The position numbers were made by a program, and so were the translations under genes. The notes beneath the pieces were generated by a model. It ran no database searches, was not told the origin of the DNA, and saw only the letters and a program-made list of their open reading frames with translations. Shown piece after piece: positions 21,071 through 39,296 of a DNA stretch of 64,000 nucleotides. Location of the stretch: the IMG/VR virus record IMGVR_UViG_3300014720_000002; one strand, written 5' to 3'. This DNA is from a virus. Positions within the stretch are counted from its first letter, which is position 1. Every line of letters begins with the position of its first letter.

Positions 21071-22135
21071 ATGACCGCACCTCCAGCGCTCGAACCTCCC
21101 GGCGTCAAGCTGAGCGACTGGGACGATTTTGACTCGCATAGAGATGCCATCTACACCCAGGCGCGCGAGGCGATGCTCAAGAAGTTCCCGCAGAGCTACG
21201 GTGGCGTCCGGCTTGAACTCCATGACCTCGATTACGAGGATCCTCCTCGGGCATCATTGGCCGAGCAGAAGCGCGCCATCCTTGAGAACCGGTATCTGCA
21301 TCGCCGGCTGCGCGGCACCTGGCGCATGTTCGATGACAAGACCGGTGACCTGCTGGAAGAGCGGCGCAGCACGGTGATGAAAGTTCCCATGCTGACCGAC
21401 CGAGGAACTTTCATCCATGGCGGCAACGAATACACGACGCTGCACCAGGCTCGCCTGATGCCGGGCGTGTTCACCCGGCGGAAGGCCACCGGCGAACTGG
21501 AGACGCACTTCAACGTGCGGCGCGGCACGGGTTCTTCGTTCAGGGTTCATTTGGAGCCGGAGAGCGGTCTGTTCAAGCTGGACATTGGTCAGTCCAGCTT
21601 GCGGCTTTACTCGTTGCTGAAGGACATCGGCGTGTCTGACGAGGAGTTGGAGAAGCGCTGGGGTCCGGAGTTGCTGCAGACCAACCGTAACAAGTATGAC
21701 GCGCGTGTCTTTGAAAAGGCGTATCAACGTCTGGTGCGGCAGCCAAAAGCCGAGGCCACGCGCGAGGAAAAGGCACAGGCCATACGCGAGGCGATGATGC
21801 GCGCCAGGATGGATCGCCGGGTGGTGGAGCGGACGCTGCCAAACCTGTTCAACCGGAAGGTGGCCGCTGCATGGCAGCAGGGCCGCGACGACGATTTTGA
21901 CCGGGCTGACTACATCATGCTTGCCCGGCTGCTGGACGAGAAGTTTGGGTCGGGCATACCGACGGACTTGACCACATCAGAACTGGTGGAACGCCTTCGG
22001 ACTGAGATGGGTGAGTTGCTGCCGCAGGTGGACGACCGTCTTCTGCGGCAATGGGTAGAAAATCAGAAAAATCATGAAACGACTACTGGCGACGTTGGTG
22101 GTGTTGGGTCTGACGCAGTTCTGTCATGGGTCTGA
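21071..22135 (+). CDS. rpoB: DNA-directed RNA polymerase beta subunit, N-terminal fragment
   Basis: KVPMLTDRGTFIHGGNEYTTLHQARLMPGVF aligns with bacterial [30 protein letters not shown]. Confidence 0.88.
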   Translation: MTAPPALEPPGVKLSDWDDFDSHRDAIYTQAREAMLKKFPQSYGGVRLELHDLDYEDPPRASLAEQKRAILENRYLHRRLRGTWRMFDDKTGDLLEERRSTVMKVPMLTDRGTFIHGGNEYTTLHQARLMPGVFTRRKATGELETHFNVRRGTGSSFRVHLEPESGLFKLDIGQSSLRLYSLLKDIGVSDEELEKRWGPELLQTNRNKYDARVFEKAYQRLVRQPKAEATREEKAQAIREAMMRARMDRRVVERTLPNLFNRKVAAAWQQGRDDDFDRADYIMLARLLDEKFGSGIPTDLTTSELVERLRTEMGELLPQVDDRLLRQWVENQKNHETTTGDVGGVGSDAVLSWV

Positions 22136-22526
22136 GGCTGCGACCAGACAGGAACTCGTCCTGGCTTCGGTGCTGATTGGCGAGGCAGGCGGTGAAGGTC
22201 TGCGTGGTATGCAGGCCGTGGCCGACGTCATCCGCACGCGGGCTGGACTGGCCGGCACCGATGCTTACCAGGTGACGCGACGCAGGGCAGCGTTTTCCGT
22301 GCTGGGTAAGGGTGAGTCGCGCCTGTATCAGAAATCGCGACAGCACGTCCGGTTTCCCCAGGCGCTCGCATTGGCTCAGCAGTTGATGCGGCAGCCATCG
22401 AGCTTGCCATCCGTTGTTCCAGGCGCGACGCATTTCACTAATCGGCACGAGCGGCCCTATTGGGCTCGTGGTCGCGCGCCGCTTTACGTGGTGGGTGAGC
22501 AGGCGTTTTGGAAGTTGAAGATCTAG
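22074..22526 (+). CDS. SleB/Hydrolase_2-family cell wall hydrolase with signal peptide
   Basis: LASVLIGEAGGEGLRGMQAVADVIRTR ... GATHF ... PYWA ... VGEQAFW; hydrophobic N-terminus. Confidence 0.85.
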   Translation: MKRLLATLVVLGLTQFCHGSEAATRQELVLASVLIGEAGGEGLRGMQAVADVIRTRAGLAGTDAYQVTRRRAAFSVLGKGESRLYQKSRQHVRFPQALALAQQLMRQPSSLPSVVPGATHFTNRHERPYWARGRAPLYVVGEQAFWKLKI

Positions 22527-22549
22527 CCAGTTGGTGGCAGCCTGACCGC

Positions 22550-23080
22550 ATGACGCGTGATCAAGCACTCCAGCGGTGGCAGGCTATGGCGCCTGGCCGC
22601 AAGCAGGCTCTGGCCGACAACATCCTCAATCCCATCAGTCAGTTTGGCAGTGCCATGTCGCATCTGCCGCAGGTCTCCAATTTGCGTCCGATGGTCACCA
22701 AGGCGCCTCCTGAAACATTGGCGGGTGCAGCGGCCAATACCTTCTGGCGTGGTCCGATGGAGGGGGTCAAGTTCCTCGGGCATACTCTGCTGGGCAAGGG
22801 CGCTCTGCCGGCGGCTGGGCTTACGCCCAACCAGATCGGCAAGAATCCTGCGCACGGTCCTGGTGTGCTGGAGAACCTCGTGAATTATGGAATTGGCATG
22901 GCCAGTGGCCAGCGTGAGACTGTCGGACCTTTCTCGCGTGTGTTCACTGGGCCGATTCAACGCGCCATGCCGCACGCTGAGCGTTACATGGATCTCACCG
23001 GCAGGCTTGGACAGAAAGCAGTGTGGGAGCCTATCGAGGCGGTCAAGCAGTGGTGGAACGAGCCTATCTCCGTTTATTGA
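22550..23080 (+). CDS. Hypothetical amphipathic protein
   Basis: ORF between the hydrolase and the RNAP fragment. Confidence 0.6.
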   Translation: MTRDQALQRWQAMAPGRKQALADNILNPISQFGSAMSHLPQVSNLRPMVTKAPPETLAGAAANTFWRGPMEGVKFLGHTLLGKGALPAAGLTPNQIGKNPAHGPGVLENLVNYGIGMASGQRETVGPFSRVFTGPIQRAMPHAERYMDLTGRLGQKAVWEPIEAVKQWWNEPISVY

Positions 23081-23083
23081 ACC

Positions 23084-23761
23084 ATGCCGATAGCCCTCAG
23101 CAAGGTGCAGGCGGCGCTGGAAAAGTCGGCGTTGACTGCGCGTCCGAGAACACATGAGGAGCGGGATGACGATGTTCCTGCGGATGTGGACGCCCTGCTC
23201 GCTTCGACGGAGAAATTGTTGGCTGTAAGCCGCGGGGTGGCGGATGCGGATGAGCGCGACAGTCTTGAGTTTCGACAGGTGCTACGTCCGGCCGATTTGC
23301 TGGCAGAGCGGGTGCATTTGGACGCGGACAAGGTGCTGCGCACAACCATGCGCCGGCTGGCCAAGCAGCGCAGCCTCAAAGCGGTTGGCCCTTCGCACTT
23401 CGACCGCTATGCCACCGGGCTGCTGATCGGGCATGAGTTGTCGGCTCCGCTGGAGGAGATCAATCCGCTGCAGTTGGTCGAGCAGGCCCGGCGCATCACT
23501 CAGATGGGACCTGGCGGCCTGCCGTCGGAGGAATCCATCACCCCTGAGGCGCAGAATCTGCATCCATCGCAGTTTGGATTTTTGTCAACCACGGAAGGCC
23601 CTGAAAGTTCGAGAATTGGTATCGACACCAGGCTGGCCTGGGGCGCCAAGTATGGCAGTGACGGCAAGCTGTATCAGAAGTTTGTGGATCGCAAAGCTGG
23701 CCGAGCACGCTGGGTTTCTTATCCAGAGATCGCCGGCAGAACCATCGGTATTCCAAGATAA
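23084..23761 (+). CDS. rpoB: RNA polymerase beta subunit, middle fragment (fork loop/Rif-pocket region)
   Basis: EEINPLQLVEQARRITQMGPGGL...QNLHPSQFGFLSTTEGPESSRIG matches [23 protein letters not shown]...[23 protein letters not shown]. Confidence 0.92.
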   Translation: MPIALSKVQAALEKSALTARPRTHEERDDDVPADVDALLASTEKLLAVSRGVADADERDSLEFRQVLRPADLLAERVHLDADKVLRTTMRRLAKQRSLKAVGPSHFDRYATGLLIGHELSAPLEEINPLQLVEQARRITQMGPGGLPSEESITPEAQNLHPSQFGFLSTTEGPESSRIGIDTRLAWGAKYGSDGKLYQKFVDRKAGRARWVSYPEIAGRTIGIPR

Positions 23762-24021
23762 TGGCCAGTAGTTACCGGCGTGTTCGCCGGCTTAGGGACG
23801 CAGCCAAGCTGCTGCGTCATTGGACAAGGAAGCTGCATGACACCACGGAAAGCTGGCAGGGCCGCATCGGCACTGAACTGGCCTACTTGTGTCACGCGGT
23901 GCTGAACAACCACAAGGTTGATTTGAAACACAATTCTCCTCTTTTGCGGAAGATGAACGAGGTGGATCCCGCGAGGGCATCCGACATCTGGTTCTTCATC
24001 TGCGAAGTCAACGACGAGTAG
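23761..24021 (+). CDS. Small hypothetical protein
   Basis: TAATG-coupled ORF. Confidence 0.55.
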   Translation: MASSYRRVRRLRDAAKLLRHWTRKLHDTTESWQGRIGTELAYLCHAVLNNHKVDLKHNSPLLRKMNEVDPARASDIWFFICEVNDE

Positions 24022-24080
24022 CGCGGTGTGCCGGCGCTGCCTGTCGTCATCAACACAGGCACGTTCGGAAAGCAAACCAC

Positions 24081-24527
24081 ATGAAAGCAGAAAAGCAGAA
24101 ATCACAGGGGTTCTGGGCGTCGCTCGGGACCATCATAGCCGCGCCGTTCATGGCCGGCGTTGAGTTCATCGACACCCGCCCGGGTGGCAAGGCGGTGCGC
24201 CGCCATCTCGGCGACAAGAAGTTCGAGGTGGTGACGCAGGGCGAGGGTGACAGCCAGACCTACACCATCGAATGCGTCAGCAAGCGCACCGGCAAGGTGC
24301 GTGAGCGCCTGCCGCGTGCCTTCGACAAGGGCGAACTCGCCGCCGCCTACGCGCTGGGCGCGCAGGATCTGGCGGACAGCGCCAGCAAGCTGCGTCGTCG
24401 CGCCATCAACGCGCACGAGCGCAACGTGGCCGAGGTGCTGAAGGCCGAGAAGAAGGCGAGCAAGAAAGCGGCGACCGAGCCGGCACCCGAGGTGCCCGAT
24501 CCGCTGGCTGTCACCGCGGCGACCTGA
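24081..24527 (+). CDS. Hypothetical protein (strong codon bias, Lys/Ala-rich tail)
   Basis: 148-aa ORF followed by a terminator. Confidence 0.7.
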   Translation: MKAEKQKSQGFWASLGTIIAAPFMAGVEFIDTRPGGKAVRRHLGDKKFEVVTQGEGDSQTYTIECVSKRTGKVRERLPRAFDKGELAAAYALGAQDLADSASKLRRRAINAHERNVAEVLKAEKKASKKAATEPAPEVPDPLAVTAAT

Positions 24528-24545
24528 GTCGGTTTGGCAATGTGA

Positions 24546-24584
24546 AGAGCGCCCCGGTCATTGCGGACCGGGGCGCTCTGTTTT
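24546..24584 (+). terminator. Intrinsic terminator
   Basis: 14-bp perfect stem agagcgccccggtc / gaccggggcgctct followed by gtttt. Confidence 0.8.
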
Positions 24585-24602
24585 AGACGGCGATTGTTTA
24601 GC

Positions 24603-25619
24603 ATGAAAGAAGAGACACGGATGTTGGATGTGCTCACGCGCAACGGCGTGCTGGGTGCGGTGTGCATTGGCTTCTGGCGTGGGCGCAAGAAGCTCCGGGC
24701 CAAGGAGATTGGAATGTCGGAGTCGGATTCGGTGGCGGCGCTGGTGTCGTTCGGGCAGAAGCGCCTGGTCAAGACGGAGGTGCTGCATCCTTTGACGCTC
24801 ATCGAAGGGAGGGCGCGCGACTACCTGGCGGTCAATTCGTTTCCATTCATGGATGGGCTGGCCAACTTCATCCCCAACATCAGGCTGGCTGAGACCCAGC
24901 AGCGAATGGATGCGTTCAAGGCCGAGTTTGAGTCGGAGCGCGACAAGTTCATGCAGCGCTACGACACGCTGCGTCAGGAGAGCGTCGAGGAGTGGCGCAA
25001 GACTGCCCCGGAGATCAACAAACAGAATCCTGAGTTCCTCGTGTCGGCCATCGAAGAGGCGTTTCCGGTGGCGGCTTACGTGCAGGCCAGTTTCAAGTTC
25101 GACTTCAAGCTGTTCTCAGTGGGTGTCCCGACCGAGGTGCAGGCCAGTGGTTTGACGATGGTGGCAGTGGGTGACCAGTTGGCGGTGATGGAAGCCCGCA
25201 AGCGCGCCGCGGCCGAGGCCTCAGCCAAGATCCGGACAGATGCCGACCGGTTCGTCAGCGAGTGTGTCAAGAGCTTGCGCGAGCAGACGGCCATGCTGTG
25301 CTCCGAAATGCTGCAGAGCACCAACGCCTCCGAGAGCGGGGTGCATCAGAAGACCCTGAACCGGTTGCGCACGTTCATTGGGCATTTCAAGCAGATGAAC
25401 TTCGTCAATGACACGCAGATGGACCGGATGCTGGCGCAGGCCGAGGCCGAGTTGCTGTCGAAGTCCGCCAAGGATTACCGGGACAGCAAGGACGCCCAGA
25501 CCAGCTTGATCAACGGCCTGCAGGCGCTGCGCTCCAAGGCTCAGCAACTGGCGGCCGAGGATGTGACCGGAGTGGTCAGTCAGTTTGCTGAGGTTGGTTC
25601 CCGCAACATGCTGCTATGA
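24603..25619 (+). CDS. DUF3150-like protein
   Basis: FWRGRKKLRAKEIG...SFGQKRLV...SFPFMDGLANFIP...HQKTLNRLRTFIGHFKQMNFVND; family recalled from memory. Confidence 0.7.
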   Translation: MKEETRMLDVLTRNGVLGAVCIGFWRGRKKLRAKEIGMSESDSVAALVSFGQKRLVKTEVLHPLTLIEGRARDYLAVNSFPFMDGLANFIPNIRLAETQQRMDAFKAEFESERDKFMQRYDTLRQESVEEWRKTAPEINKQNPEFLVSAIEEAFPVAAYVQASFKFDFKLFSVGVPTEVQASGLTMVAVGDQLAVMEARKRAAAEASAKIRTDADRFVSECVKSLREQTAMLCSEMLQSTNASESGVHQKTLNRLRTFIGHFKQMNFVNDTQMDRMLAQAEAELLSKSAKDYRDSKDAQTSLINGLQALRSKAQQLAAEDVTGVVSQFAEVGSRNMLL

Positions 25620-26050
25620 GTCACGTTGACATGGTGGAGATCGAGGTGAAGTCGCTGCAGGCGCTCAAGGAAGCGTGTGCGGCGCTTGGGCTGTCGTTCC
25701 AGGACGGCAAGAAGACCTACGAGTGGTATGGCACGTCGGTGGGCGACTATCCGCTACCCAAGGGCATGACCAAGGCTGACCTGGGCAAGTGTGCGCACGC
25801 CATCAAAGTGCCAGGTGCGTCGTATGAGATCGGCGTGGTGCAGGACAAGCAGACCGGCCATTTTGGGCTCGTCTATGACTTCTGGGGATCCAACCAGGGC
25901 GAGCCGATCATGAAGCGGTTGGGTAAAGGGCTGGAGAAGCTGAGGGCCGAATATGCGGCACAGGCCGCTATCGAGCAGGCTCAGCGGCGTGGTCTTCGGG
26001 TCACTCGCACCCTGCTGCAGGATAACCGTCTGCGCCTGCGGATTCAATGA
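25616..26050 (+). CDS. DUF1257 (Ycf35-like) protein
   Basis: MSHVDMVEIEVKSLQALKEAC...YEIGVV...FGLVYDFW...LRAEYA. Confidence 0.8.
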   Translation: MSHVDMVEIEVKSLQALKEACAALGLSFQDGKKTYEWYGTSVGDYPLPKGMTKADLGKCAHAIKVPGASYEIGVVQDKQTGHFGLVYDFWGSNQGEPIMKRLGKGLEKLRAEYAAQAAIEQAQRRGLRVTRTLLQDNRLRLRIQ

Positions 26051-26250
26051 GCAAACCCTACATCGAAGTTACCATCGACCTGAACACTGCCGTCACCACT
26101 GTGGAGGCGCACGGGTTCAAGGGAAAATCCTGCGTGGAAGGCACGGCGGAGATTCTGGCGGCGCTCGGCAAGTCGGAGCAGCGCAAGCTGAAGTCCGACT
26201 ATCACCAGCGCGAGGCCGTCAACGCTTCCCGGCTGAAAGCCGGCCGGTGA
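26047..26250 (+). CDS. DUF2997-like protein
   Basis: IEVTID...VEAHGFKGKSCVEGTAEILAALG pattern. Confidence 0.75.
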   Translation: MSKPYIEVTIDLNTAVTTVEAHGFKGKSCVEGTAEILAALGKSEQRKLKSDYHQREAVNASRLKAGR

Positions 26251-26501
26251 TGGATCTGTTCATTGATGCCGCCGGCAACATCACGGCGCTGCACTCTGAT
26301 CTCATCCCGCTACCTGAACTTGGTCGCATGACCACGCGCCGGGTGTCCGACATACGGTGGTCGGACCCCCGGCAGGTATGGGAGGTGTTCGGATTGGCAG
26401 AAGGACGGGTTTTGTTCAGTGATCGGGACCGGTCGGTGTGCCTGTCCTGGGAGGTGGAGTATTTCAACGGAAAGATTTTGAATGAAGAAGTTCTCGGCTG
26501 A
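26250..26501 (+). CDS. Small hypothetical protein of the AAA module
   Basis: TGATG-coupled; MDLFIDAAGNITALHSD...WEV...WEVEYFN. Confidence 0.65.
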   Translation: MDLFIDAAGNITALHSDLIPLPELGRMTTRRVSDIRWSDPRQVWEVFGLAEGRVLFSDRDRSVCLSWEVEYFNGKILNEEVLG

Positions 26502-27519
26502 GTTTGTCGGCAGTTACATCCAGTGCGGCAATCCAGGGCTGTTCCTGGTCACGTCGGAGCAGCAGCGGGTGGAGCATGACTTCTTGGCGCTGGTGCGCGG
26601 TAACGTCAAGCTGTCGAAGCACAAGGTGTTCTGTTGGAACATGGCGTCTGGTGTGATCGACCGCAAGGAGTGCAAGCAGGTCTCCGAAGCAGCGGATCCG
26701 CTGGAGGTGCTTCAACTGTTCGTGTCTCCGGATGGACAGACGTTTCCCGCCAAGTCGGCAGTGCTGCTGATGGAGGATCTGCATCTGCACCTGGAGGGCG
26801 GTGTGCCCAACGCCATTCTGATCAGCGCCATCAAGCGCACGCTGCGCATCGCCAAGTCACAGAACAAGACGCTGGTCATGACGGGTTGCCGGTTTGTCCT
26901 GCCGCCTGAGTTGGAGCGTGAACTGGTGATGGTGGATTACGCTCTGCCCGATGCTGTCATGCTGGGGACGGTGCTGGACAATGTGGTGAAGTCCGCCAAC
27001 ACCGCCATCAAGGCTTCCGGTGGGGGTGAGATCAGCTTGGAGCCGACCGCGCGCGAGTCGATTGTCGCCTCGGCGAGCGGCATGACGGTAGCCGAGGCCG
27101 AGAACGCGTTCGCGCTGTCGCTGGTCCGTCACAAGTCGGTGGTCGCCACGGTTGTGGCGGAAGAGAAGGCTTCTGCCGTCCGCAAGAGTGGTGTGCTTGA
27201 ACTCGTTAGCACGCAGCTTTCGCTGAGTGATGTCGGCGGGCTGGAGACCCTCAAGGAGTGGCTGCAGACCAGGCGGCGTGCGCTGACCAAGGAAGCACGA
27301 GACTTTGGCCTGCCGTCCTTGCGGGGCATCCTGCTGCTCGGTCCTCCCGGCACCGGTAAGTCACTGGTGGCCAAGGCCACGGCCGTGTCGTTTGATGTGC
27401 CATTGGTCAAGCTGGACTTCGGGCGTCTGTTCGGCAGTTTGATCGGACAGACGGAGCAGAATCTACGCAACGCTCTCAACACGGTGGAGGCCATTTCGCC
27501 GTGTGTGTTGTGGTGTGAT
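26482..27519 (+). CDS. AAA+ ATPase (Ycf46-like), exon 1
   Basis: DVGGLETLKEWL, Walker A GPPGTGKS; ends in Walker B VLWCD. Confidence 0.9.
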
Positions 27520-28416
27520 TGACATTTGGTCACACCTTAAAACTGTGTGAATTGCTGGAACAGCCTTAGAGCCTTGTTACCCTTTGGGTCGAAAAAACAA
27601 GGATTGGCCAATCAGCAGCTAAGCCTTTTTGCTGGCGCAAGCTGGTGGATCGGAAAGTTCAACGACTAGGGCTACGGCCCGTAGCTCCGAAGACGGAGCG
27701 AAGCGCACAGGTATTTTGCTTGAAAAGGTTTCTCAACTTCTGCAGCCTGACTGCATGTGGTCAAGAAACCATAACTGTTGTGTGGTATGCAGTGGTGTCG
27801 ATTCTCCGCACATGGCCGGTGGCCGGTGTAGTAAATGTTATCAGGCCATCTACAGAAGCCTCCACAAGGAGCAGATGGCTGAGAGCAAGCGTCGCTGGTA
27901 TAAGCGTCACATGACTCCTGAGCTTATGCGCAGCATACGCGAGGAACGTCATTTTGGCTCTAACCGGACGCTGGCTTTGGAGAGAGATGGATTCAAGTGT
28001 CAGCTTTGCGAATGCCGCGATCTTAAAAAGCTCGTTGTGCACCACAAAGATGGACATGGAAGATCTACTGATGCTCCTAATAACGATTTGGATAATCTTC
28101 AGACGCTGTGTCGGAAACATCACATCAAGGTGCATTTAGCAGAGTTGCAACTGGCCAAGAAAGGCTTGCTTGTAATACCTGATAAGATGCGTAAAGGCAG
28201 CTACCGTCAGAGACCCATTTCTGGCTGGTCTAGGTTGTATGCGCACTGCGTCGTTTGTGAGAAATCTGACAGCCCGCACAAGGGAAGAGGTTGGTGTAAC
28301 CGTTGCGCCCAGCGCAAGGATCTACACCATCTCTACGAGCAAAGTCCAAGATATAGTCTGAGCTTCAAGGAAACTTGAAGAGGGTGGCTGGTATCGAGCC
28401 ATCCGAAACAAAACTG
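27520..28416 (+). mobile_element. Group I self-splicing intron (IA2-like) inserted in the AAA ATPase Walker B motif
   Basis: P1 ggtgtgatt/ggtcacacc with U27519-G27529 wobble; P aattgctggaa; Q aatcagcag; R gttcaacgactag; S aagatatagtct; P3 ctgtgtg/cgcacag; P7.1 and P7.2 hairpins; P9 cttcaag-gaaa-cttgaag; terminal G28416. Splicing restores WCD|EIEK. Confidence 0.93.
27755..28378 (+). CDS. Intron-encoded HNH homing endonuclease
   Basis: RDGFKCQLC...VHHKDG...NDLDNLQTLCRKHHIKVH; lies between P3' and P7'; lower GC than flanks. Confidence 0.88.
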   Translation: MWSRNHNCCVVCSGVDSPHMAGGRCSKCYQAIYRSLHKEQMAESKRRWYKRHMTPELMRSIREERHFGSNRTLALERDGFKCQLCECRDLKKLVVHHKDGHGRSTDAPNNDLDNLQTLCRKHHIKVHLAELQLAKKGLLVIPDKMRKGSYRQRPISGWSRLYAHCVVCEKSDSPHKGRGWCNRCAQRKDLHHLYEQSPRYSLSFKET

Positions 28417-28968
28417 GAAATTGAGAAGGGGCTATCCGGCACCAAGTCCGGCGGGGCCTCTGATGGTGGCGTTATGGATCGCGTGTTCGGTGCGTTCCTT
28501 ACCTGGCTCAACGAAAAGACGGTAGATGTTTTCGTGGTCGCCACGGCGAACAAGGCAGCGGAGTTGCCGCCTGAGTTCCTTCGTCCGGGCCGGTTTGACT
28601 CCCTGTTCTTCGTTGATCTTCCGACGGCGTCGGAGCGCGAGGTCATCTGGAAGATCCAGATGGCCAAGTATGGGCGCAAGCTCAAGGGCTTCGACCTCAA
28701 GGAACTGGCGGTCAACACCAGTGGGTTCACCGGCGCCGAGATCGAGGCCATCCTGGTGGAGGGCCTGCACATGGCATTCGCGGCCGAGCGCGATCTCAAG
28801 CAAAACGACCTGCTGGAGGCGCGCAAGCAAATCTCCCCGGTGGCCAAGGTCATGGGCGATCAGCTTGTGCAACTGCGCAACTGGGCCAAGGACCGGACCC
28901 GTCCGGCCGGGCTGGGTTTCGCTGAGACGCCGACGGCAGAACTTGGCGAGCGTGCACTGAGCGTATGA
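28417..28968 (+). CDS. AAA+ ATPase (Ycf46-like), exon 2
   Basis: EIEKGLSG...SDGG...FLTWL...VFVVATAN...LPPEFLRPGRFD; spliced product 529 aa. Confidence 0.9.
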   Translation, partial: EIEKGLSGTKSGGASDGGVMDRVFGAFLTWLNEKTVDVFVVATANKAAELPPEFLRPGRFDSLFFVDLPTASEREVIWKIQMAKYGRKLKGFDLKELAVNTSGFTGAEIEAILVEGLHMAFAAERDLKQNDLLEARKQISPVAKVMGDQLVQLRNWAKDRTRPAGLGFAETPTAELGERALSV

Positions 28969-30366: not shown

Positions 30367-30784
30367 GGGCCTGAATTGGTTTCGACTGCAGATTGTGCGC
30401 CGTGAGTTGCATGCAGTGGATGATCGTTGGCCACGCTAAACTTCGATCAAAAGTATCAGCCAACTCGCAAGAGGACGCTGGTCTGCTCGCCGAAGCGGCT
30501 CGCATCATGGGCAACCCTGATGCCGTGCTCGCCAAGTATGAGCAGGCTGTTCTGGCCTAACCAAAGCCAGCCGTTCGCCGGGTGACACCTGCTGTCCCGG
30601 AACGAACGTCATCAGCAGGTTCAATCAGCAGCCAGGCGACCGGCTGTTGGGTGTGACTGTCAGGCGCAAACCTTGTCGGCCAGTTCTCCTGGTTCGAGTC
30701 GGCAAGTTACTAACCGGGAAAAGCATGTAGAGCTTGCGGTAGTCAGTGTGCAGGACCTCGGTTCAACCCCGAGCAGGTCCACCA
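30367..30784 (+). ncRNA. ssrA: tmRNA (transfer-messenger RNA), 418 nt
   Basis: 5' GGGCCTGAATTGGTTTCGAC pairs with 3' CAGGTCC-ACCA; T-arm ctcggttcaaccccgag; PK1-like gtgg/ccac plus tgatcg/cgatca; tag ORF 30459-30560. Confidence 0.95.
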
Positions 30785-30811
30785 ATTTGCCGGCCTCCCT
30801 GGGCTGGCTTG

Positions 30812-30848: not shown

Positions 30849-31007
30849 GGGGTCATCAACGGAATCATCACTATGTTGGACGTGCTCGCCTGTTTAGCCG
30901 AAACCATCACACCGCCCGTCAGTCTGCCTTTACCGGCAGTTAGACCTCCGGCCTCTCCCGTCGTTACCGCCACTGCCCATGCTGGCAGGCAATCGCTACA
31001 GACCGGC

Positions 31008-31763: not shown

Positions 31764-31774
31764 GTTGAACTGAC

Positions 31775-31804
31775 GAGGAGGCGTGGGAATTCCCACGCCT
31801 CCTC
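31775..31804. repeat. Perfect 30-bp palindrome
   Basis: gaggaggcgtgggaa|ttcccacgcctcctc. Confidence 0.9.
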
Positions 31805-32001
31805 TGGTTCTAGGTTCGGCTGATTGTTAGCTATTGGCTTGCTGACTAAGAACAAAGCCGTTAAATCCGTCCGGCAGCACTGTGAGTCTTCCGATGGCTT
31901 ACCGGGTCGGCGGGATGGCGGATCTTGGTGTTGGGTGTGGTCCGGCTGTAGTCGATCTGGGAAAGTCAGCCTGTTTGCTGGCCTGTGGTGCTGCCTTTGT
32001 T

Positions 32002-32220
32002 TTGCGCGTTGAGATTGAAATCGAAGACACGCTGGTGGCTGAAGGCGGGCAGACTCCCCGCCCAGGGCTGAGCGCCACTTGCTCGCGCTGCGACCACTGC
32101 GTTGAAGTAGCCGGCGAAGGCCCTTCAGCGGAGATGGCGCTGCAGACTTTGCTGCGCCGCACCTGTCCGTTGCGTGAGCAGAACCGGTATGTGACGCTGC
32201 CAGATGAGCGAATGGATTGA
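32002..32220 (+). CDS. Small Cys-containing hypothetical protein
   Basis: RVEIEIEDT...ATCSRCDH...TCPLREQNRYV; TTG start inferred. Confidence 0.5.
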   Translation: MRVEIEIEDTLVAEGGQTPRPGLSATCSRCDHCVEVAGEGPSAEMALQTLLRRTCPLREQNRYVTLPDERMD

Positions 32221-32692
32221 ACCTCGGTCCCGCGCCTGCTACATTGGCCCCATGTTCAAATGCGCAGCAGTAGGACAAGACAGCCTGGGCGAAGCTGCCG
32301 GTATCTTGCGCGACATCTACAACGAGAATCCGAGCTACTGGCCGCACGGCCTGTCAGTCGGTCACTTTGACGGCGGGCTGTGGCTGGTTCGTGAGAAGTC
32401 TTCCAGCGCTCCGGTAGGTTTCGTCGGTTGGCAGGAGCGGCCTGAGCGTTCGGCGAGCGGCCTCCGCAAGATAGGCTACTATTCCATCGGAGTGCTGCCA
32501 GCCTATCGAGGCAACGGCTTTGCGCGCGAGGCGGTGGGCAAGCTACTGAGCTTTAAGTCCGCCGCTGTGGACGAGGTCAGGGCGCTGATCAAGCAGCACA
32601 ATCTGCCGTCGTTGCGGCTGGCCGCCAGCCTGGCTGTGCCCGTGGTTAAACTTGCCAGCGCTGCTCCAGCAGGTAAGGTAGCCCGGCGATGA
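32204..32692 (+). CDS. GNAT-family acetyltransferase
   Basis: IGVLPAYRGNGFAREAV acetyl-CoA motif A; NLPSLRLA. Confidence 0.85.
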   Translation: MSEWIEPRSRACYIGPMFKCAAVGQDSLGEAAGILRDIYNENPSYWPHGLSVGHFDGGLWLVREKSSSAPVGFVGWQERPERSASGLRKIGYYSIGVLPAYRGNGFAREAVGKLLSFKSAAVDEVRALIKQHNLPSLRLAASLAVPVVKLASAAPAGKVARR

Positions 32693-34161
32693 GCAGCCTG
32701 AACTACATCCCTTGGCTGGCCGGCGGTGTCGGCCTGGCTGCGTTGGAGAACAAGCTCATTGCAGAGGAGATTCCTGACCCGCTGAAGACGGTCAACCTGG
32801 GTGTTGGGGCTGTGACCGGATTTCTGGGTGCTAACCCGACCACGCGGACGGCGGCGCTTAATAGTCTTCCGTTCAAGCAGCTAGGTCTGTTCGGTGTCGG
32901 CGCCATGGACAAGTTTCGCCGCCAGCAGCAGTCGTTGGTGGATACCAACCTGACGACGGCCAACATCAACAAGGACACGGCGCGGTTGCATCAAGATGAC
33001 GCCGGTAATCGCAAGGCGATGGCTTTGGCCTTTTTGCTGCCGGCTTTGGTGGGTAGCGGGGCGCTGGCTTACTACGCCTACAACAAGGGGCAGCGGTCTT
33101 CGCCGGGATCTCGGTTTCAGACTGTGGACAGCAAGGGCGCTCCCAAGGGGCGTCGGCGGGTGAAGATCGAGGTGCCGGCGTCGGCCTTGCCGGATGAATT
33201 TTTCTCGTCTTTGATCAACGTGGACGACAATTCCAAGGCGTTCACCCGGGTGCAGGAGAAGAGCGAAGCTCCAGTGCGCAAGCGTGCTTCCGCTGACCGT
33301 TCTATTCCCGGCATGGTTTGGGACACAGCACAGGAGTTCACTGGACTACCTTCGGTGACGCGCTCGCTACGGGAGGCAGGGCAGGCCACTGCGCAAGGCG
33401 TGGCTGGCAACTACGACGAGGCTGGTCGTTATGGTTTGGCCTCGGCGGGTAATCTGGCCATTGGGGCGCTTGGTGCGCAGACCATGCCTTGGCTGCTGGG
33501 CAAGATGCTGACGCAGAAGCGGCTGGCTGACTGGCGCAACTCCCGCAAATTTTCACCGTCGGGATTTTTGGACCCCAAGTTGCCGCACATCGGCAACTGG
33601 ATCTGGCGCCATTCGTTCGGCAATCAGTTGTCACCGCAGCAGGCCAAGGCGCGCAAGGCCATGTCGGCTACCAGCATGGCGGCCGGCGGTAAAGCCGTTG
33701 ACATGCGTGGCGCGTTGGACCGTGCCCGGGACATCAAGTTTCGTTACGATCCCCGCCGGTTTGCGTGGAGTAATCCCGCGGCGGCAAAACCGTATTCCCT
33801 GGGTAGCGTGTTCAATCGACTGCTGACGGAGTCGCCAGGGGGAGCCAGCACCGGCATTCTTGGGCGTGCCGCCGACATCGGACGCTACGGGGCCAACCGC
33901 GCGGTCAATGCCGCCTACTGGACGCACCAGCTTGCCCGGCGCAATCCGATGGCGTCGTTGTTCGCGCTTGGCCTGCCTTTGTCTGGGCTTGGGTCCATCA
34001 AGGACGACGACAATTTGAACGCGGCCCGCGCAGCCGGCGCGGCCAATTCTTTCTTCACGGCGCCCAGCCGCAACGGTCGGCCGGTGAGCCAGACCTTGGA
34101 CTCCATCCTCGGTTTGATCGGCGGCAACCAGCCGCATCCGGTGGTCGGACAGCTTCGTTGA
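32689..34161 (+). CDS. Gly/Ala-rich multi-hydrophobic putative virion (internal/ejection) protein
   Basis: Several hydrophobic helices; KRAS at an apparent domain boundary. Confidence 0.65.
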   Translation: MSSLNYIPWLAGGVGLAALENKLIAEEIPDPLKTVNLGVGAVTGFLGANPTTRTAALNSLPFKQLGLFGVGAMDKFRRQQQSLVDTNLTTANINKDTARLHQDDAGNRKAMALAFLLPALVGSGALAYYAYNKGQRSSPGSRFQTVDSKGAPKGRRRVKIEVPASALPDEFFSSLINVDDNSKAFTRVQEKSEAPVRKRASADRSIPGMVWDTAQEFTGLPSVTRSLREAGQATAQGVAGNYDEAGRYGLASAGNLAIGALGAQTMPWLLGKMLTQKRLADWRNSRKFSPSGFLDPKLPHIGNWIWRHSFGNQLSPQQAKARKAMSATSMAAGGKAVDMRGALDRARDIKFRYDPRRFAWSNPAAAKPYSLGSVFNRLLTESPGGASTGILGRAADIGRYGANRAVNAAYWTHQLARRNPMASLFALGLPLSGLGSIKDDDNLNAARAAGAANSFFTAPSRNGRPVSQTLDSILGLIGGNQPHPVVGQLR

Positions 34162-34167
34162 ATTCCG

Positions 34168-35220
34168 ATGAGGGTAATTACCATGACCGGGTGGCGGCGC
34201 CCGGAGCTTACGAATGCCGTGCTTGATTCCCTGGCCCAGTGCTGCGGCTCAGACCGTTACGAGGTCTTGTTGCATCTTGAGCCAGGGCACGAGGCTGAGA
34301 TTTTGAAGGTGGTCGGCAAACCGCGTCCGTTTGTGGTGCACACGTCCGTCAACAAGACTGTGCTTGGCATTTCTACCAACACGCTGGCGGCGTTGGAGCA
34401 CGGTTTTGCCCGGTCAGAGTTTGTGGTCCACCTGGAGGATGACTCATTGCTGCTACCCAATGCCCTGCGGTTCTTCGAGTGGTTCGACGATCGTCGGGCT
34501 TTGCGGGAGGTGCATCGGCTGGCGACTCTGTCGGCTTATTCGACGCACCAGGGATTGAACCATGACACTGCTGCACCCGACGAGGTGTTTGTGCAGCGCT
34601 GGTTCAGTTGCTCTGCCTGGGCCACCTGGCGTGATACCTGGCAGGCCATGAAGCGTAGCTGGGGCGGCGACGCGCGCGGTTTTGCCCGCCACGTCTGCGG
34701 CTTTCAACTGCTGCACGACCTTCACCAGGCATATCCTGGCCAGTCCTTGTGCAAGAACATAGGCTTTGGGGCTGCTGGTTCGGTCAACGCCGGGCAAGGC
34801 TTTACGATGCCGGGTCAGGTCTGCGACCACGTCGCGGTGCCTCGTGACTACTGGATCAGCCGTCTGCCATCAACGGCGCGGCCTAGCTTCATGGACGCGG
34901 ACGTGACGCCGGCTGAAGCAGCCGTGGCTTTGCACTGGATTGCCTCCAGCATGCCGGATGGCGGTTGGAGGTATCCGGGTTCAGTGCGGGGGCGCCCGTG
35001 GACTGCGCTTGGGGTGCTGCCTTCTGACGTTGGGCCGCTATTGCTGGACGACAGCATCGCGTGTCCGATGGATGCCAGCATGGCGTTGCTGGAGACTTGG
35101 CCTACCGTGGTGGTGGTATGCGGGACAGGCTGGCCGGCGGTGTTGGTGGAACGCGGCTACCGACTGGAGTTCGAGCATTTGAACGAAGGTGCAGGAGTGC
35201 GGAAGTTTGTGCGGCAATGA
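34168..35220 (+). CDS. GT-A fold (GT2-like) glycosyltransferase
   Basis: RRPELTNAVLDSL ... FVVHLEDDSLL ... WATWRDTW. Confidence 0.78.
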   Translation: MRVITMTGWRRPELTNAVLDSLAQCCGSDRYEVLLHLEPGHEAEILKVVGKPRPFVVHTSVNKTVLGISTNTLAALEHGFARSEFVVHLEDDSLLLPNALRFFEWFDDRRALREVHRLATLSAYSTHQGLNHDTAAPDEVFVQRWFSCSAWATWRDTWQAMKRSWGGDARGFARHVCGFQLLHDLHQAYPGQSLCKNIGFGAAGSVNAGQGFTMPGQVCDHVAVPRDYWISRLPSTARPSFMDADVTPAEAAVALHWIASSMPDGGWRYPGSVRGRPWTALGVLPSDVGPLLLDDSIACPMDASMALLETWPTVVVVCGTGWPAVLVERGYRLEFEHLNEGAGVRKFVRQ

Positions 35221-35558
35221 AGGAGCATAATCTGGCGGACCTGAGGTCTGCCCTGAAGGCGTCGGGTGTGTCGGCCAGGGATCGCGGCACGGTCTTGGAG
35301 TTCAAGTTCTCCCGGAATTTCGTGAGGCAGTTGGAACTGTTTGCTCCTGGGTGTGGCAGCCGGACCCATGTTCCTGGCACGAATGGCGGACAGATGGAGT
35401 GTGGCGCCTGGCTGACTTGGATGGACGGAACTCGCATCCAGCAGTTCTGTGGTTACTGTGAGTCTCAACTGAATGCACCTGCAGTCGTTTGTTTATCGCA
35501 ATGTCCGGTTTCGCAGCAAGGTAATGGCCGAGATGGCCTGGTGGTTGGACCGGTTTGA
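35217..35558 (+). CDS. Hypothetical protein
   Basis: ATGA-coupled; overlaps the next ORF by 86 nt. Confidence 0.45.
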   Translation: MKEHNLADLRSALKASGVSARDRGTVLEFKFSRNFVRQLELFAPGCGSRTHVPGTNGGQMECGAWLTWMDGTRIQQFCGYCESQLNAPAVVCLSQCPVSQQGNGRDGLVVGPV

Positions 35559-36132
35559 ACTGGGCTGGGCTTATGAGCCCGAAACTTTGGTTGATGGGCC
35601 GGTCTCGGTGACGCCCGACTTCTGGCTTCCCGACATCCAGACGCTGGTGTTTGTGCAGACCCGTGTGCTGCCCAGCGACCACTGGGAGGCCAGCATGCGC
35701 ATGGTGGGGACGCTTGGCCGTCGGACCGTGTTTCTGGAAATGGACCGGCACGTCGTTGGACCGATGGAGGACATCCCCGATCCAGCGCGCCTGGTGACCT
35801 GCCTCGACGGGTTGTTCAAAGTTGAACCAAACACGGACTGCACCTTCGCCGAGCCGGGTCAGGGTTGGTTCTGGCACAGCCGCTTTGCCCAGTCCGTTTC
35901 GCACATCAAGCAGTTGGCCAGCGGCGCGCATGTGCTGCTGATTCGATGCACCGTGTGCGGCGTGGTGCATTGGACGCATCGGGCGGGCGACATGCTCTGT
36001 CCCCGGTGTCAGTTGGGCAATTCCAGCAAACCTGAGCGCTGGCAGAAGCACATCATTCCCGCGCTGCATCTTCGGACGATGGCTGAGGTGCACCGGCTGG
36101 TTGAACAGGCCCGCAGTTTTTCCGGCGCGTGA
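35473..36132 (+). CDS. PD-(D/E)XK nuclease-like protein with C-terminal Cys motifs
   Basis: FRSKVMAEMAWWLD...WAYEPE...TPDFWLP...FVQTR; CTVC and CPRC. Confidence 0.65.
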   Translation: MHLQSFVYRNVRFRSKVMAEMAWWLDRFELGWAYEPETLVDGPVSVTPDFWLPDIQTLVFVQTRVLPSDHWEASMRMVGTLGRRTVFLEMDRHVVGPMEDIPDPARLVTCLDGLFKVEPNTDCTFAEPGQGWFWHSRFAQSVSHIKQLASGAHVLLIRCTVCGVVHWTHRAGDMLCPRCQLGNSSKPERWQKHIIPALHLRTMAEVHRLVEQARSFSGA

Positions 36133-39100
36133 CGCCGGCGTTAGCCGAGCCAGCCGGTGGGAAGTGGTTTGCCCCACCGGCTGGCTTTCAGCGGCTCGAC
36201 AAACCGTCCGAGGTGGTGTGTCATGTGGACATGCCGACTGCAATCCAGACGCCCCGGCGGGCAGTGGTCCGTGGTAGCACGCTGACCGAGGCCGACGATA
36301 CCGACGTAGAGTTTGAACTGGACAGTCCTGATCAGTTCTTCGGCTCCCACATCGGCCTCATCCCATTGCGTTCCGCGGTGGCTGGTCCGCGGCTGTTCTA
36401 CGGTGCACGGTTCTACAACCAGGCTCTTCCTTTGCCGCAGGCTGAAGCTCCGCTCGTGCAGGCGCTGGCCGACAAGGATGAGCAGGGCCGTTCGTTCGAT
36501 GAGATTCTCGGCAAGGCGGCAGGCGCTAGGCTGGCCAAGGCTGACGGCGTGGTTCGGGACGTGACGCCTGACTGGATTGAACTGGAGCTTTCAGACGGCA
36601 AACGTGAGCAGGTCGAGCTTTACAACAAGCTGCCGTTCAACCGCAAGACCAGCCTGACCAATACCCCGGTGGTGAAGCCCGGCGATCAAGTGCGCTCAGG
36701 ACAGGTGCTGGCCAAGTCAAACTTCACGGATGCAGAAGGCCGGCTGGCGATGGGGTTGAACGCGCGCATTGGGCTGGTGCCCTACCTTGGCAAGTCCATG
36801 GATGATGCCGTGGTGGTGAGCGATGCGTTCGCACGCCGGCTTTCCAGCGAGCACCTCTACGGCTACGACCTGGACAACCGCAATGGCATCAAGTTCGGCA
36901 AGGCCCATTATGCCGGCATCTTCCCTGGACGTTTCATCAAGGACCAGTTGGAGAAGCTGGATGATGACGGGGTGGTGCGTCCTGGCATGCTGGTGCAGCC
37001 TGGCGATCCGCTCATCCTGGCTACCCGGCCTCGCGTAGTGTCCAGCACGTCCGCCCAGCTTGGTTTGCTCAGCAAGCACATGAAGAACGCGCGCACCAAT
37101 GCCGCTTTGCTGTGGGATCACGACGAACCAGGGACAGTGACCGATGTGGTCCGCCTGCCCGACGGTTCGGCCAAGGTCAACGTGCAAGTCATTGAGCCTA
37201 CGCGACTTGGCGATAAGATCGTAATGCGATCCGGGCAAAAAGGGATAATTTCCGAGATCCTCCCTGACGACCAGATGCCACGCACGGCTGACGGCCATCC
37301 GTTGGAGGTTCTGCTCAATCCGCTGGGCATCCCCTCGCGGGTGAACAACTCGCTGGTTTATGAGCTTCTGCTCGGCAAGGCGGCACGCAAGAGCGGCAAG
37401 CCGTTCAAGCTGCCGGCGTTCCTGCCGGAAGGTCAGCAGTGGGACAAGATCGTTGAGCAGCATTTGAAGGATGCTGGGCTGACTGACACTGAGGAGGTCT
37501 ATGACCCCAAGTTTGGGCGCAAGCTGGAGCGGCCGGTGACGGTGGGCGATGGTTACGTGCTCAAGCTTCATCACACGTCAGCATCTAAGATTTCTACTCG
37601 CGGACAAGGGAGCTACACTTGTTTTGATGATATTACTGAAGTGTGCACGCGTCGAGGCTGGGTGGCGTGGCCGGATGTAACAGCCGACGATGAGTTCGCG
37701 ACTGCAGATGACGGCAAGCTTGTGTTCAGTAGGGCCAGCCGTATCACAAAAGAGTTTTACTCTGGAGAATTGGTAGGGTTTGAGGGACGGTATTTGGATT
37801 GGCTTGTGACTCCGAACCATAACCTTTTGGTCAAGTTCAGAAAGCCATCTAGTCGATTGCGTATGGAGCGCGCTGATGCGCTGTTCGGTAGGTCGTTCTA
37901 CGTGCCTCAGTTTGGGTTTGCTGAGTTGCATGGTAGAAATCCTCGGCGTTTTGTTTTGTCCGGTCGCGTAATTAGAGACACTCTTGGTAGGGTGTATAAC
38001 ACTCCTGGGTTTGAGTGCGAGTTTGAAGACTTTGCTGATTTTGCGGGATGGTGGTTGTCCGAAGGCGAGGTTCGTTTGACTGAAGGCAGAGTTAAGTTAT
38101 ACCAGTCAGAGAAAGCCAATCCTGCAAAGTTCCAACAGATTGAGTCGCTTTTGAAGCGGCTAGGCGTGGCCTTCAACGCTATCCGAAGGAATGGGGTGGG
38201 TGTAGGATGGCAGTTCGCCAATAAATCATTGGCTTTTTTTCTGGCTAGTGAATTCGGGTCTGGTTCTGTCAATAAGAAGATACCAGAGTTTATGCTTTCG
38301 GCGGGTTTGTCGGCGCGTCGTAGAATGTATTCCAGCATGATGCTAGGCGACGGGACTGCCGATTCATCCGGTATGGATGTGTGCTACAACACCTGCTCCA
38401 AGAGACTGGCTGATGATTTTCAGCGGCTGTGCATTGGGCTTGGGTTTGGGTCAGTGATAAGTTATAGACCGGCTACTACTAGTAGTGCTATTAGAGGCAG
38501 AGTAGTTCATTCTGGACCTATATGGCGTTGTGGTGTCAGCCTTCGTAGGAAGTTTGCCTTGGTCGAGAATTACAGCAATCGACCCACAAGGCATTATCGC
38601 CAGCACTATGAGGGATTTGTTTATTGCGCTACTATTCCTGTAACCGGCTTGTTGCTAGTCCGCAGAAATGGTAAGCCTATGTGGTCTGGTAATTCAAACG
38701 AGCAACCCGCCCACGGCGGCGGCGAAACGGCTCAGGCCAAGCGGTTGTCTGGACTGGAGTCGCGCGCTTTGATCTCGTCGGGGGCCTACAACGTCCTGCG
38801 CGAAGGAGCTACGCTGCGGGGCCAGCGCAACGACGAGTATTGGCGTCAACTGCACATGGGCCTTCAACCCCGGGACCCAGGTCGTCCGTTCATGTTCTCG
38901 AAGTTCCTGGCCATGCTGTCCGGTGCCGGCTATCTGGCGCGCAAGCTGCCCAAGGACCGGTATCGGCTTCAGTTCATGACCGATCGTGATCTGGATGGGT
39001 TGAATCCAACGGAATTGTCCAACGGTGAGATAGTTGACATCGGCACGTTCGAGCCGGTAAAGGGCGGTCTGTTCGATCCGTCCATCACTGGCCGGCAAAG

Positions 39101-39296
39101 CTGGGGTGCCATCAGGCTGCCCCAGCCCATGCCGAATCCGGCAGCCGAGGATGTGATCAGAAAGCTGCTCGGGTTGACACAGAAAGAGTTTCGTTCGGTG
39201 CTGTCCGGCGAGATGGAGTTGCCGGTAGAGACGCTGCAGAGACTGAGACATGAACAACAAGGAGTTGGACGCGGCAGTGCTGGAAGCGGTGGATAA
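36129..39296 (+). CDS. rpoB: RNA polymerase beta C-terminal fragment fused to beta' N-terminal fragment, containing an intein
   Basis: GDKIVMRSGQKG, LNPLGIPSRVN, YVLKLHH, KRLSGLESRAL, then FEPVKGGLFDPSITG...WGAIRLPQP (beta' region). Confidence 0.92.
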   Translation: MTPALAEPAGGKWFAPPAGFQRLDKPSEVVCHVDMPTAIQTPRRAVVRGSTLTEADDTDVEFELDSPDQFFGSHIGLIPLRSAVAGPRLFYGARFYNQALPLPQAEAPLVQALADKDEQGRSFDEILGKAAGARLAKADGVVRDVTPDWIELELSDGKREQVELYNKLPFNRKTSLTNTPVVKPGDQVRSGQVLAKSNFTDAEGRLAMGLNARIGLVPYLGKSMDDAVVVSDAFARRLSSEHLYGYDLDNRNGIKFGKAHYAGIFPGRFIKDQLEKLDDDGVVRPGMLVQPGDPLILATRPRVVSSTSAQLGLLSKHMKNARTNAALLWDHDEPGTVTDVVRLPDGSAKVNVQVIEPTRLGDKIVMRSGQKGIISEILPDDQMPRTADGHPLEVLLNPLGIPSRVNNSLVYELLLGKAARKSGKPFKLPAFLPEGQQWDKIVEQHLKDAGLTDTEEVYDPKFGRKLERPVTVGDGYVLKLHHTSASKISTRGQGSYTCFDDITEVCTRRGWVAWPDVTADDEFATADDGKLVFSRASRITKEFYSGELVGFEGRYLDWLVTPNHNLLVKFRKPSSRLRMERADALFGRSFYVPQFGFAELHGRNPRRFVLSGRVIRDTLGRVYNTPGFECEFEDFADFAGWWLSEGEVRLTEGRVKLYQSEKANPAKFQQIESLLKRLGVAFNAIRRNGVGVGWQFANKSLAFFLASEFGSGSVNKKIPEFMLSAGLSARRRMYSSMMLGDGTADSSGMDVCYNTCSKRLADDFQRLCIGLGFGSVISYRPATTSSAIRGRVVHSGPIWRCGVSLRRKFALVENYSNRPTRHYRQHYEGFVYCATIPVTGLLLVRRNGKPMWSGNSNEQPAHGGGETAQAKRLSGLESRALISSGAYNVLREGATLRGQRNDEYWRQLHMGLQPRDPGRPFMFSKFLAMLSGAGYLARKLPKDRYRLQFMTDRDLDGLNPTELSNGEIVDIGTFEPVKGGLFDPSITGRQSWGAIRLPQPMPNPAAEDVIRKLLGLTQKEFRSVLSGEMELPVETLQRLRHEQQGVGRGSAGSGG
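37620..38693 (+). mobile_element. Intein (358 aa) with LAGLIDADG homing endonuclease
   Basis: Starts CFDDITEV, ends VRRNGKPMWSGN followed by Ser; FAGWWLSEG and MMLGDGT motifs; lower GC than flanks. Confidence 0.93.

Follow-up and report, generated by a model that had tools for sequence, protein, structure and literature searches.

RNA polymerase pieces in the window

The window analysed here, that is, the whole stretch of 64,000 nucleotides (nt) taken from the IMG/VR virus record IMGVR_UViG_3300014720_000002, carries on its + strand three genes, which we call P1, P2 and P3, for pieces of the beta subunit of a multisubunit RNA polymerase (RNAP). Whereas RpoB is usually a single polypeptide of ~1100-1400 amino acids (aa), here its parts were found in three genes starting at positions 21071, 23084 and 36129 (Table 1). 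An earlier note on this DNA had described three collinear RpoB pieces, set apart by a cell-wall hydrolase and by about 12 kb of other genes and with extra tails on the first two, and the description was borne out. The three are real open reading frames (ORFs) that all match RNAP beta by Pfam, Protein Data Bank (PDB) and model comparisons; the Hydrolase_2 gene stands between P1 and P2; P3 follows P2 after ~12.4 kb with at least 15 genes, one group I intron and one transfer-messenger RNA (tmRNA) gene; and residues ~273-354 of P1 and ~1-30 of P2 have no beta counterpart. The pieces are also, as had been proposed, still easily aligned to RpoB, with Pfam and PDB matches up to E 9e-52 (P3 with the Pfam family RNA_pol_Rpb2_6, PF00562).

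P1 gave no Pfam match. Its assignment relies on matches to PDB entries for bacterial beta, which reached E 1.4e-10 when a profile built from P1 and related proteins was used, and on an AlphaFold (AF2) model with a predicted local distance difference test score (pLDDT) of 88. Residues 4-272 of this model align to E. coli beta ~20-440 (17-272 on 28-439 with VIA-align), and residues 129-262 align to the beta2 crystal structure 3lti (151-413) with a Z of 9.8 and a root-mean-square deviation of 3.2 Å. The start at 21071 was also the one chosen by metagenome gene callers. P2 comprises the second part of beta1, the fork/Rpb2 domain 3 and conserved region D (E. coli beta ~424-620), as supported by Pfam RNA_pol_Rpb2_3 (PF04565, E 2e-8) and by a profile that was placed on E. 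coli beta 424-596 (E 1.2e-15) and that extends to ~620 in other chains. P2 ends at the profile position where the P2 part of every fused P1-P2 homologue ends. The P1 tail and the P2 head are both absent from the compact P1-P2 fusions (484-488 aa), and are therefore extras associated with the break. The regions preceding the starts of P1, P2 and P3 showed no motif of the Shine-Dalgarno type.

The three genes were further compared with the polymerase of Salmonella phage Arash. The protein gp206 of this phage (1525 aa) carries Rpb2_3 and Rpb2_6; Rpb1_1 begins at residue 1022, and Rpb1_2 with the catalytic loop comes next, so that in Arash beta is fused to the N-half of beta', and a second protein, gp216, carries Rpb1_5. 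Four collinear segments of gp206 were placed on the window by tblastn (E 3e-65 to 2e-18), with residues 19-288 on P1, 270-468 on P2, 492-925 on nt 36300-37616 and 926-1104 on nt 38691-39212. The last two blocks lie within P3 and bracket an insertion between them.

In the part of P3 that precedes this insertion, residues 66-314 align with E. coli beta 656-902, and the catalytic-core motifs GDK..R.G.KG..S, NPLG.PSR.N and KL.H...K...R..G.Y are intact in the PDB alignment. The part that follows gave no match against the PDB as a single sequence, and a profile (A3) was needed for it. Positions 4-84 of the profile matched the C-terminal end of beta chains (best E 1.5e-4), in E. coli for example at residues 1256-1335 of 1342, and positions 89-139 matched residues 8-59 of beta' in many bacterial chains (E ~1e-3). 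The last residues of P3 correspond to the '...ERVLYF' segment of bacteria. One alignment column, ...LLGLT..EF..VL.G, closes the piece in every split relative, whereas Arash gp206 runs on; this column lies ~130 residues into bacterial beta', just before GAEAI..LL..DL, the segment that, in the consensus, opens the proteins of the next piece, P4. The predicted P3 protein crosses the beta/beta' boundary, with beta fused in frame to the N-terminus of beta'. The third gene had been taken for the C-terminus of beta, and this holds as far as the C-half and the C-terminus of beta are indeed present, but the gene also encodes an intein and the N-terminus of beta'. An alternative start of P3, the ATG at 36231, matches the start of an 89%-identical homologue. 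Comparison of the P3 exteins with this relative gave a ratio of nonsynonymous to synonymous substitution rates (dN/dS) of 0.073 at a dS of ~1, and the pieces are under purifying selection.

The insertion in P3 is a LAGLIDADG intein. The Pfam domain LAGLIDADG_3 was found at P3 residues 739-780 (E 3e-7), and the element has a Cys1 (C498), a block B TPNH, two LAGLIDADG-type motifs, an end ...SGN (N855) and a Ser at position +1 (S856). The closest P3 homologue, P0122 (89% identical, on a 196.8-kb ENA contig syntenic with the window), is intein-less and reads GSYT-SNEQ without a gap (GSYTSNEQPAHGGG), with 89-90% identity on both flanks. The GC content is 49% in the intein and 60.5% in the exteins, suggesting that the intein is a recent arrival; at third codon positions (GC3) the values are 0.49 and 0.69-0.73, respectively. 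The insertion point corresponds to the junction between ...GPYS and LVTQQPLGG... in bacterial beta, in region H and near the active site. Six allelic inteins, 31-47% identical, occupy the same site in other family members and share the CxD..TEV start, the LVTPNH block and the ...VRRNGKP..SGN end before the +1 S, and inteins were found in other members at at least five further sites of the P3 gene. With the known LAGLIDADG inteins of essential replication and transcription genes in phages and microbes, that of P3 shares the Hint-domain termini, the embedded homing endonuclease, the insertion into the most conserved active-site-proximal segment, the presence/absence polymorphism between close relatives and the foreign base composition.

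Table 1. Polymerase pieces, their parts and the genes between P1 and P2, in window coordinates.
Feature	Position (nt)	Strand	Description	Basis
P1, 354 aa	21071..22135	+	RNAP beta N-terminal piece	PDB profile, AlphaFold model, tblastn
P1 core, aa 1-272	21071-21886	+	N-part of beta1 and beta2 lobe; the SI1 insertion of E. coli is absent	
P1 tail, aa 273-354		+	Helical, lineage-specific, no beta counterpart	
Cell-wall hydrolase between P1 and P2	22074..22526	+	Hydrolase_2/SleB-like	PF07486, E 7.5e-7; phrog_938 endolysin, E 4.8e-13
Intervening ORF, 190 aa	22508..23080	+		Present among the gene calls of both independent assemblies
P2, 225 aa	23084..23761	+	RNAP beta middle piece	Pfam, profile, tblastn
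P3 precursor, 1055 aa	36129..39296	+	Beta C-half, intein, beta C-terminus, beta' N-terminus	
P3 N-extein	36129..37619	+	Beta from E. coli ~640 through the double-psi beta-barrel/hybrid-binding domain (Rpb2_6); ends ...GSYT	
LAGLIDADG intein, 358 aa (aa 498-855)	37620..38693	+		Pfam, intein-less allele, base composition
P3 C-extein, first part	38694..38963	+	Last ~90 residues of beta; boundary approximate	
P3 C-extein, second part	38964..39293	+	First ~110 residues of beta': clamp N-terminus; no Zn-binding loop	

The split layout and its breakpoints among relatives

The source of the window is a tailed phage of ~194 kb, of which the window is probably the first 64 kb. The contig that carries P3 is 194,028 bp long according to the protein index, and the first gene of the JGI contig has coordinates identical to those in the window, suggesting that the window starts where its own record starts. 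The window has ~60% GC, nearly every gene is on the + strand, and the ORF at 8703-10487 is a homologue of the portal protein of Arash (tblastn E 3e-47). No match was obtained when 20 kb of the window were compared by megablast with the INPHARED phages. Relatives in IMG/VR were recovered with an alignment query, a single-protein scan of the same database giving none, and the closest five (G001-G005) are genomes of 184-212 kb, rated 100% complete by CheckV, with terminal repeats in three of them and with homologues of the portal and major capsid proteins. A contig scan also gave three contigs of metagenome-assembled genomes, in Oscillospiraceae and Verrucomicrobiaceae bins, which are too few for assigning a host.

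The gene order around P1 and P2 was reproduced in two independent assemblies (one JGI and one Logan contig), and that around P3 also in two (one ENA and one Logan contig). A misassembly is therefore unlikely, as independent JGI, Logan and ENA assemblies give the same order.

When gp206 and gp216 of Arash were searched by tblastn against G001-G005, the polymerase was found in all five genomes as five separate open frames, P1 to P5, with the same breakpoints. In terms of gp206, P1 spans residues ~1-290, P2 ~270-469, P3 ~477-1110 and P4 ~1130-1525, and P5 corresponds to gp216. These genomes are only 49-63% identical to the window in P3. In G002-G004 the genes for P1 and P2 overlap or are direct neighbours, and in G001 a single gene comes between the two; the distance from P2 to P3 is ~13-47 kb, and P4 and P5 are further off. 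Each complete relative has one set of RNAP genes, and catalytic beta' (PF00623) is present in the five. As for the window itself, the earlier note had remarked that the catalytic NADFDGD part of beta' is not in it, and a scan of the six frames found no DFDGD-type ((N)ADFDGD-like) motif in any of them. The P4 of this phage was not recovered either in protein searches (candidates of 210-669 aa) or in a metagenome scan, and no contig from the JGI sample of the window was among the matches when it was sought.

Beyond these genomes, more than 1520 P3 homologues were found, mostly of 635-690 aa, some of ~1000-1070 aa with inteins and a few fused to PF00623, and stand-alone P4 proteins of ~380 aa are numerous. 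Grouped at 50% identity, P1 homologues give 1190 clusters. Of the 150 best, 100 have P1 alone, often with unrelated C-terminal domains, 21 have P1-P2, 7 have P1-P2-P3 and 22 have P1-P4, and none includes P5. Architecture labels mapped on a quickly built tree of the P1 core were clustered but required at least 25 changes, a rough figure because some representatives may be truncated. Architectures in the lineage range from one chain of ~1500 aa (longer with inserts), with beta and the N-half of beta', as in Arash and the Vibrio phage D69, to P1-P4 as four genes. P5 is always separate, and together with a split P1-P4 makes five scattered genes. The three-way split of beta proposed in the earlier note is genuine, conserved (five of five relatives) and under purifying selection (dN/dS 0.07), and the scattered layout is the norm of a large, mostly uncultivated group related to phage Arash, not a one-off. 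No description of the five-piece layout was found in the literature collection that was searched.

The polymerase pieces of the relatives also carry additions of their own. Inteins or intein-sized insertions were seen in P2 of G001 (L027:5712-7163), where a LAGLIDADG insertion lies within Rpb2 domain 3, in P3 of G002 (L120:9087-12104) and in P5 of G002-G004, which has ~1020-1160 aa (L116:1316-4762, L136:4721-8197, L146:1698-4754) versus ~615 aa in others. Insertions of ~500-600 aa are placed in or directly after the beta' DFDGD loop in P4 of G004 (L154:2107-5493) and of G005 (C1:178250-181384). That of G004 begins ...DFDG-N-C... and resumes ...VVF-D-T-MNAHV, boundaries which are atypical for an intein. 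In P4 of G002 and G003, DHDGD replaces DFDGD. A 2H/LigT-like phosphoesterase is found at the C-terminus of P1 in G001 (L027:3441-4985) and G002 (L121:14972-16585), and a NUDIX-like domain upstream in the same open frame as P4 of G001 (L030:5718-7766). These accessory enzyme domains recall the HD domain on the virion C-beta of phage AR9.

On E. coli beta, the cut between P1 and P2 is placed around residue 440, where the beta2 lobe ends, and that between P2 and P3 around residues 620-640, in a variable stretch that separates conserved regions D and E. Within beta', P3 and P4 are separated ~130 residues from the start, and P4 and P5 after the double-psi barrel, at the same place as the gp206/gp216 boundary of Arash. 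To our knowledge, studies of split multisubunit phage RNAPs have until now been confined to viruses of the phiKZ/AR9 type. In their enzymes beta is in two pieces and beta' is cut after the barrel, and these phages, which lack a sigma factor, encode two paralogous sets of the enzyme (PMC7598289, PMC7824862). The comparison of split sites was made with the non-virion enzyme of AR9, as the virion beta piece is a short frame of 310 aa. By hhalign, residue 23 of the AR9 non-virion C-beta stands opposite P3 residue 76, and C-beta starts ~20 residues from the P3 start. On the other side of the cut, residues 380-446 of the AR9 N-beta (496 aa) stand opposite P2 106-168, with 50 residues left to the AR9 end versus 57 to the P2 end, and N-beta residues 96-168 match the motif region of P1. 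From these positions, the AR9 N-beta is equivalent to P1 plus P2, and the single AR9 beta cut lies within ~10-20 residues of that between P2 and P3. Of the two breakpoints in beta, the P2/P3 cut is thus nearly that of an already described phage RNAP, which by the reasoning of the earlier note itself counts against a separately derived lineage; for the P1/P2 cut, and for a piece that spans the junction as P3 does, phiKZ/AR9 enzymes offer no equivalent.

The window enzyme resembles those of phiKZ and AR9 as a multi-piece two-barrel RNAP without alpha or omega, with beta and beta' encoded as separate, dispersed pieces. However, the phiKZ/AR9 beta is cut once, giving two pieces, whereas in this lineage it is cut twice, giving three; no phiKZ/AR9 piece spans the beta/beta' junction, as P3 does; and instead of virion and non-virion sets, complete relatives of the window have a single set, and sigma genes are present in relatives. 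Divergence is also much greater in the phiKZ/AR9 sequences (hhalign gave E 1e-3 with the N-beta parts), whereas the window pieces strongly match Pfam and PDB models of bacteria; P3 is 29% identical to AR9 over 137 aa versus 34% to Arash over 434 aa. By sequence, the window enzyme is not a phiKZ/AR9-type RNAP and belongs with those of Arash and the Vibrio phages D69, D181 and D148 (e.g., VPHD69_0261, 1527 aa), which are homologous, 27-34% identical and collinear over P1-P3. A separately derived new lineage, as the earlier note had put forward, is not what was found, since the enzyme groups with these phages and with more than 1500 metagenomic P3 homologues. Shared with Arash are the portal homologue upstream, the in-frame passage from beta into beta', the separate C-half of beta' with the P4/P5 boundary and the ease of alignment to bacterial RpoB/RpoC. 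The difference is that in Arash and D69 P1-P4 form one intein-free polypeptide of ~1525 aa, whereas in the lineage of the window each is a gene of its own, the four being dispersed over tens of kb, and the P3 of the window has an intein.

In-frame joining of the C-terminus of beta to the N-terminus of beta' is also found in the natural RpoB-RpoC fusions of Helicobacter, Campylobacter and Wolbachia. In these bacteria complete subunits are fused, whereas P3 holds only the C-half of beta and ~110 aa of beta', and beta' is cut again ~130 residues in. Going by its published description, the mReC group is similar to the source of the window in consisting of uncultivated large tailed phages whose beta and beta' can be aligned to cellular ones. 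It was reported as metagenomic Caudovirales of up to >200 kb from aquatic and other samples (Weinheimer and Aylward 2020, PMC7481178), in a screen that required beta and beta' matches of at least 800 aa with NADxDGD, and splits, fusions and inteins are not mentioned in that paper. An intein-free P3 of ~640 aa and a P4 of ~380 aa would fail such a screen because of its length filter of at least 800 aa per subunit.

Neighbouring genes

The cell-wall hydrolase gene that follows P1 is not part of the polymerase. The ORF between it and P2 was given as 176 or 164 aa in the gene calls of the two metagenome assemblies and had no Pfam or PHROG match. Directly upstream of P1 there is a group-1 glycosyltransferase gene (19864-21027).

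In the interval between P2 and P3, genes for DUF3150, DUF1257-like and DUF2997 proteins form a conserved cluster (24561-26250), with the same order in the close relative L007, directly upstream of an AAA+ ATPase gene. This gene is split by a group I intron at 27493-28380 (+) (Rfam RF00028, 67 bits, E 6e-15) into parts 26482-27522 and 28375-28968, at around position 64-74 of the AAA profile, and is uninterrupted (529 aa) in an 89%-identical relative. Two ORFs of low GC3 inside the intron, 27629-28378 (+) and 27761-28135 (-), had no Pfam match and may encode a homing endonuclease. The phage-encoded tmRNA gene lies at 30367-30784 (+) (Rfam 104 bits, also found by ARAGORN), and its predicted tag peptide, of 33 residues, is unusually long. 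A GNAT acetyltransferase gene (32204-32692) precedes the neighbourhood of P3, and just downstream of P3 there are nucleotide-metabolism genes at 39609-40160 and 41064-42056, whose products are a dihydrofolate reductase (E 1e-38) and a dUTPase_2/MazG-like-domain protein of 330 aa.

Assembly and function of the predicted enzyme

The explanation that we consider very likely is that the phage encodes a bacterial-type two-barrel RNAP as five separate polypeptides, which would assemble non-covalently after intein splicing and are predicted to be functional. P1 would provide the beta1/beta2 lobe, P2 the fork and region D, and P3 the C-half of beta with the first ~110 aa of beta'. Judging from the relatives, P4 and P5 would be encoded outside the window, the former supplying the rest of the N-half of beta' with the Mg-binding aspartate loop and the latter the C-half of beta' with the bridge helix and the trigger loop. 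The cuts would lie at domain boundaries or surface-exposed linkers, and the pieces would be held together as in the phiKZ/AR9 enzymes. P3 would become functional only once the LAGLIDADG intein in region H, beside the active site, has excised itself. Fission and scattering of the genes most likely came about through repeated invasion by mobile elements and gene insertions, as suggested by the group I intron in the region and by the inteins at many other sites in the RNAP genes of relatives.

As for the time of action, gp206 and gp216 belong to the most abundant proteins in the virion of Arash, a phage for which sigma factors were also reported, and its cell-wall hydrolase Gp8 is a virion protein too (PMC10585845). 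By analogy, the split enzyme is probably packaged in the virion, where it would serve early transcription with a phage sigma factor.

Several points weigh against this explanation. P4 and P5 of this genome are known from the five relatives and not from the window, and the assembly and activity of split members are deduced from sequence. No alpha- or omega-like assembly subunit was identified, and the AlphaFold model of P2 alone was poor (pLDDT 61), as expected of a fragment, and adds nothing. Packaging in the virion is known only for the fused enzyme of Arash, which is ~30% identical. Finally, the P3 intein ends ...WSGN, with a Gly in place of the penultimate His that is usual in LAGLIDADG-type inteins. 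This Gly is common to all seven allelic inteins at the site, all of which end SGN, and the missing His thus appears to be a trait of the family and not a sign of decay; splicing is predicted from the essential nature of the host gene and the conserved termini.

The same pieces could form a functional RNAP that is not packaged but made after infection, for middle or late genes, the early ones being transcribed by the host RNAP redirected by a phage sigma factor. Such enzymes exist in phiKZ/AR9 phages, whose non-virion beta split is matched by the P2/P3 break, and sigma factors are encoded by Arash-type phages. However, there is one RNAP set per complete relative, and the single set of Arash is the packaged one; P1 and P2 are also found amid structural-type genes, with the portal upstream and, between them, a cell-wall hydrolase, a kind of protein that in Arash is in the virion. 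This course of events is possible, but we regard it as rather improbable.

Rejoining of the pieces into one beta chain, either by split-intein trans-splicing through the P1 and P2 tails or by trans-splicing introns at the RNA level, is hardly credible. The genome is intein-rich and has a group I intron, and the P1 tail (~80 aa) and the P2 head (~30-50 aa) are about as long as the halves of a split intein; but the P2 head lacks an ...HN end followed by Cys, Ser or Thr, P2 and P3 lack such termini as well, unrelated enzymatic domains (2H phosphoesterase) replace the tails in relatives, and the only intron detected with Rfam is the one in cis in the AAA gene. The P1 tail is all-helical in the model and has neither a Cys/Ser1 nor a TxxH block, and the split-intein reading of both tails was rejected from sequence and predicted structure. 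Decay of an rpoB pseudogene into fragments scattered by rearrangements would account for short, non-adjacent pieces with non-homologous tails and with mobile elements in and around them, but is extremely unlikely in view of the same breakpoints in five complete genomes so distant from the window, the low dN/dS with all catalytic-core motifs conserved, an architecture common to hundreds of clusters and the abundance of the fused homologue in the Arash virion.

Taking the five-piece enzyme as the preferred explanation, the lineage shows a split RNAP in proteins that can still be aligned to RpoB and RpoC, and its fused, partly fused and fully split versions can be compared. In the phiKZ/AR9 enzymes the sequences are so diverged that their origin and rules of assembly are obscure. 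The pieces indicate that breaks in the chain would be tolerated at the end of the beta2 lobe, in the linker between regions D and E and around residue 130 of beta', and that the beta/beta' boundary itself would be dispensable. They may offer natural material for the engineering of minimal or modular RNAPs, together with site-specific inteins in active-site segments. Screens for phage RNAPs that filter by length, such as that of mReC, would miss a large share of the split diversity. If the cut shared with AR9 is inherited and not convergent, the split RNAPs of phiKZ/AR9 would descend from a bacterial-looking enzyme of the Arash/mReC type through a series of fissions in which inteins, introns and homing endonucleases would be the driving force; we put this forward tentatively, as an unlikely proposal which, if true, would give the RNAPs of jumbo phages a traceable origin.

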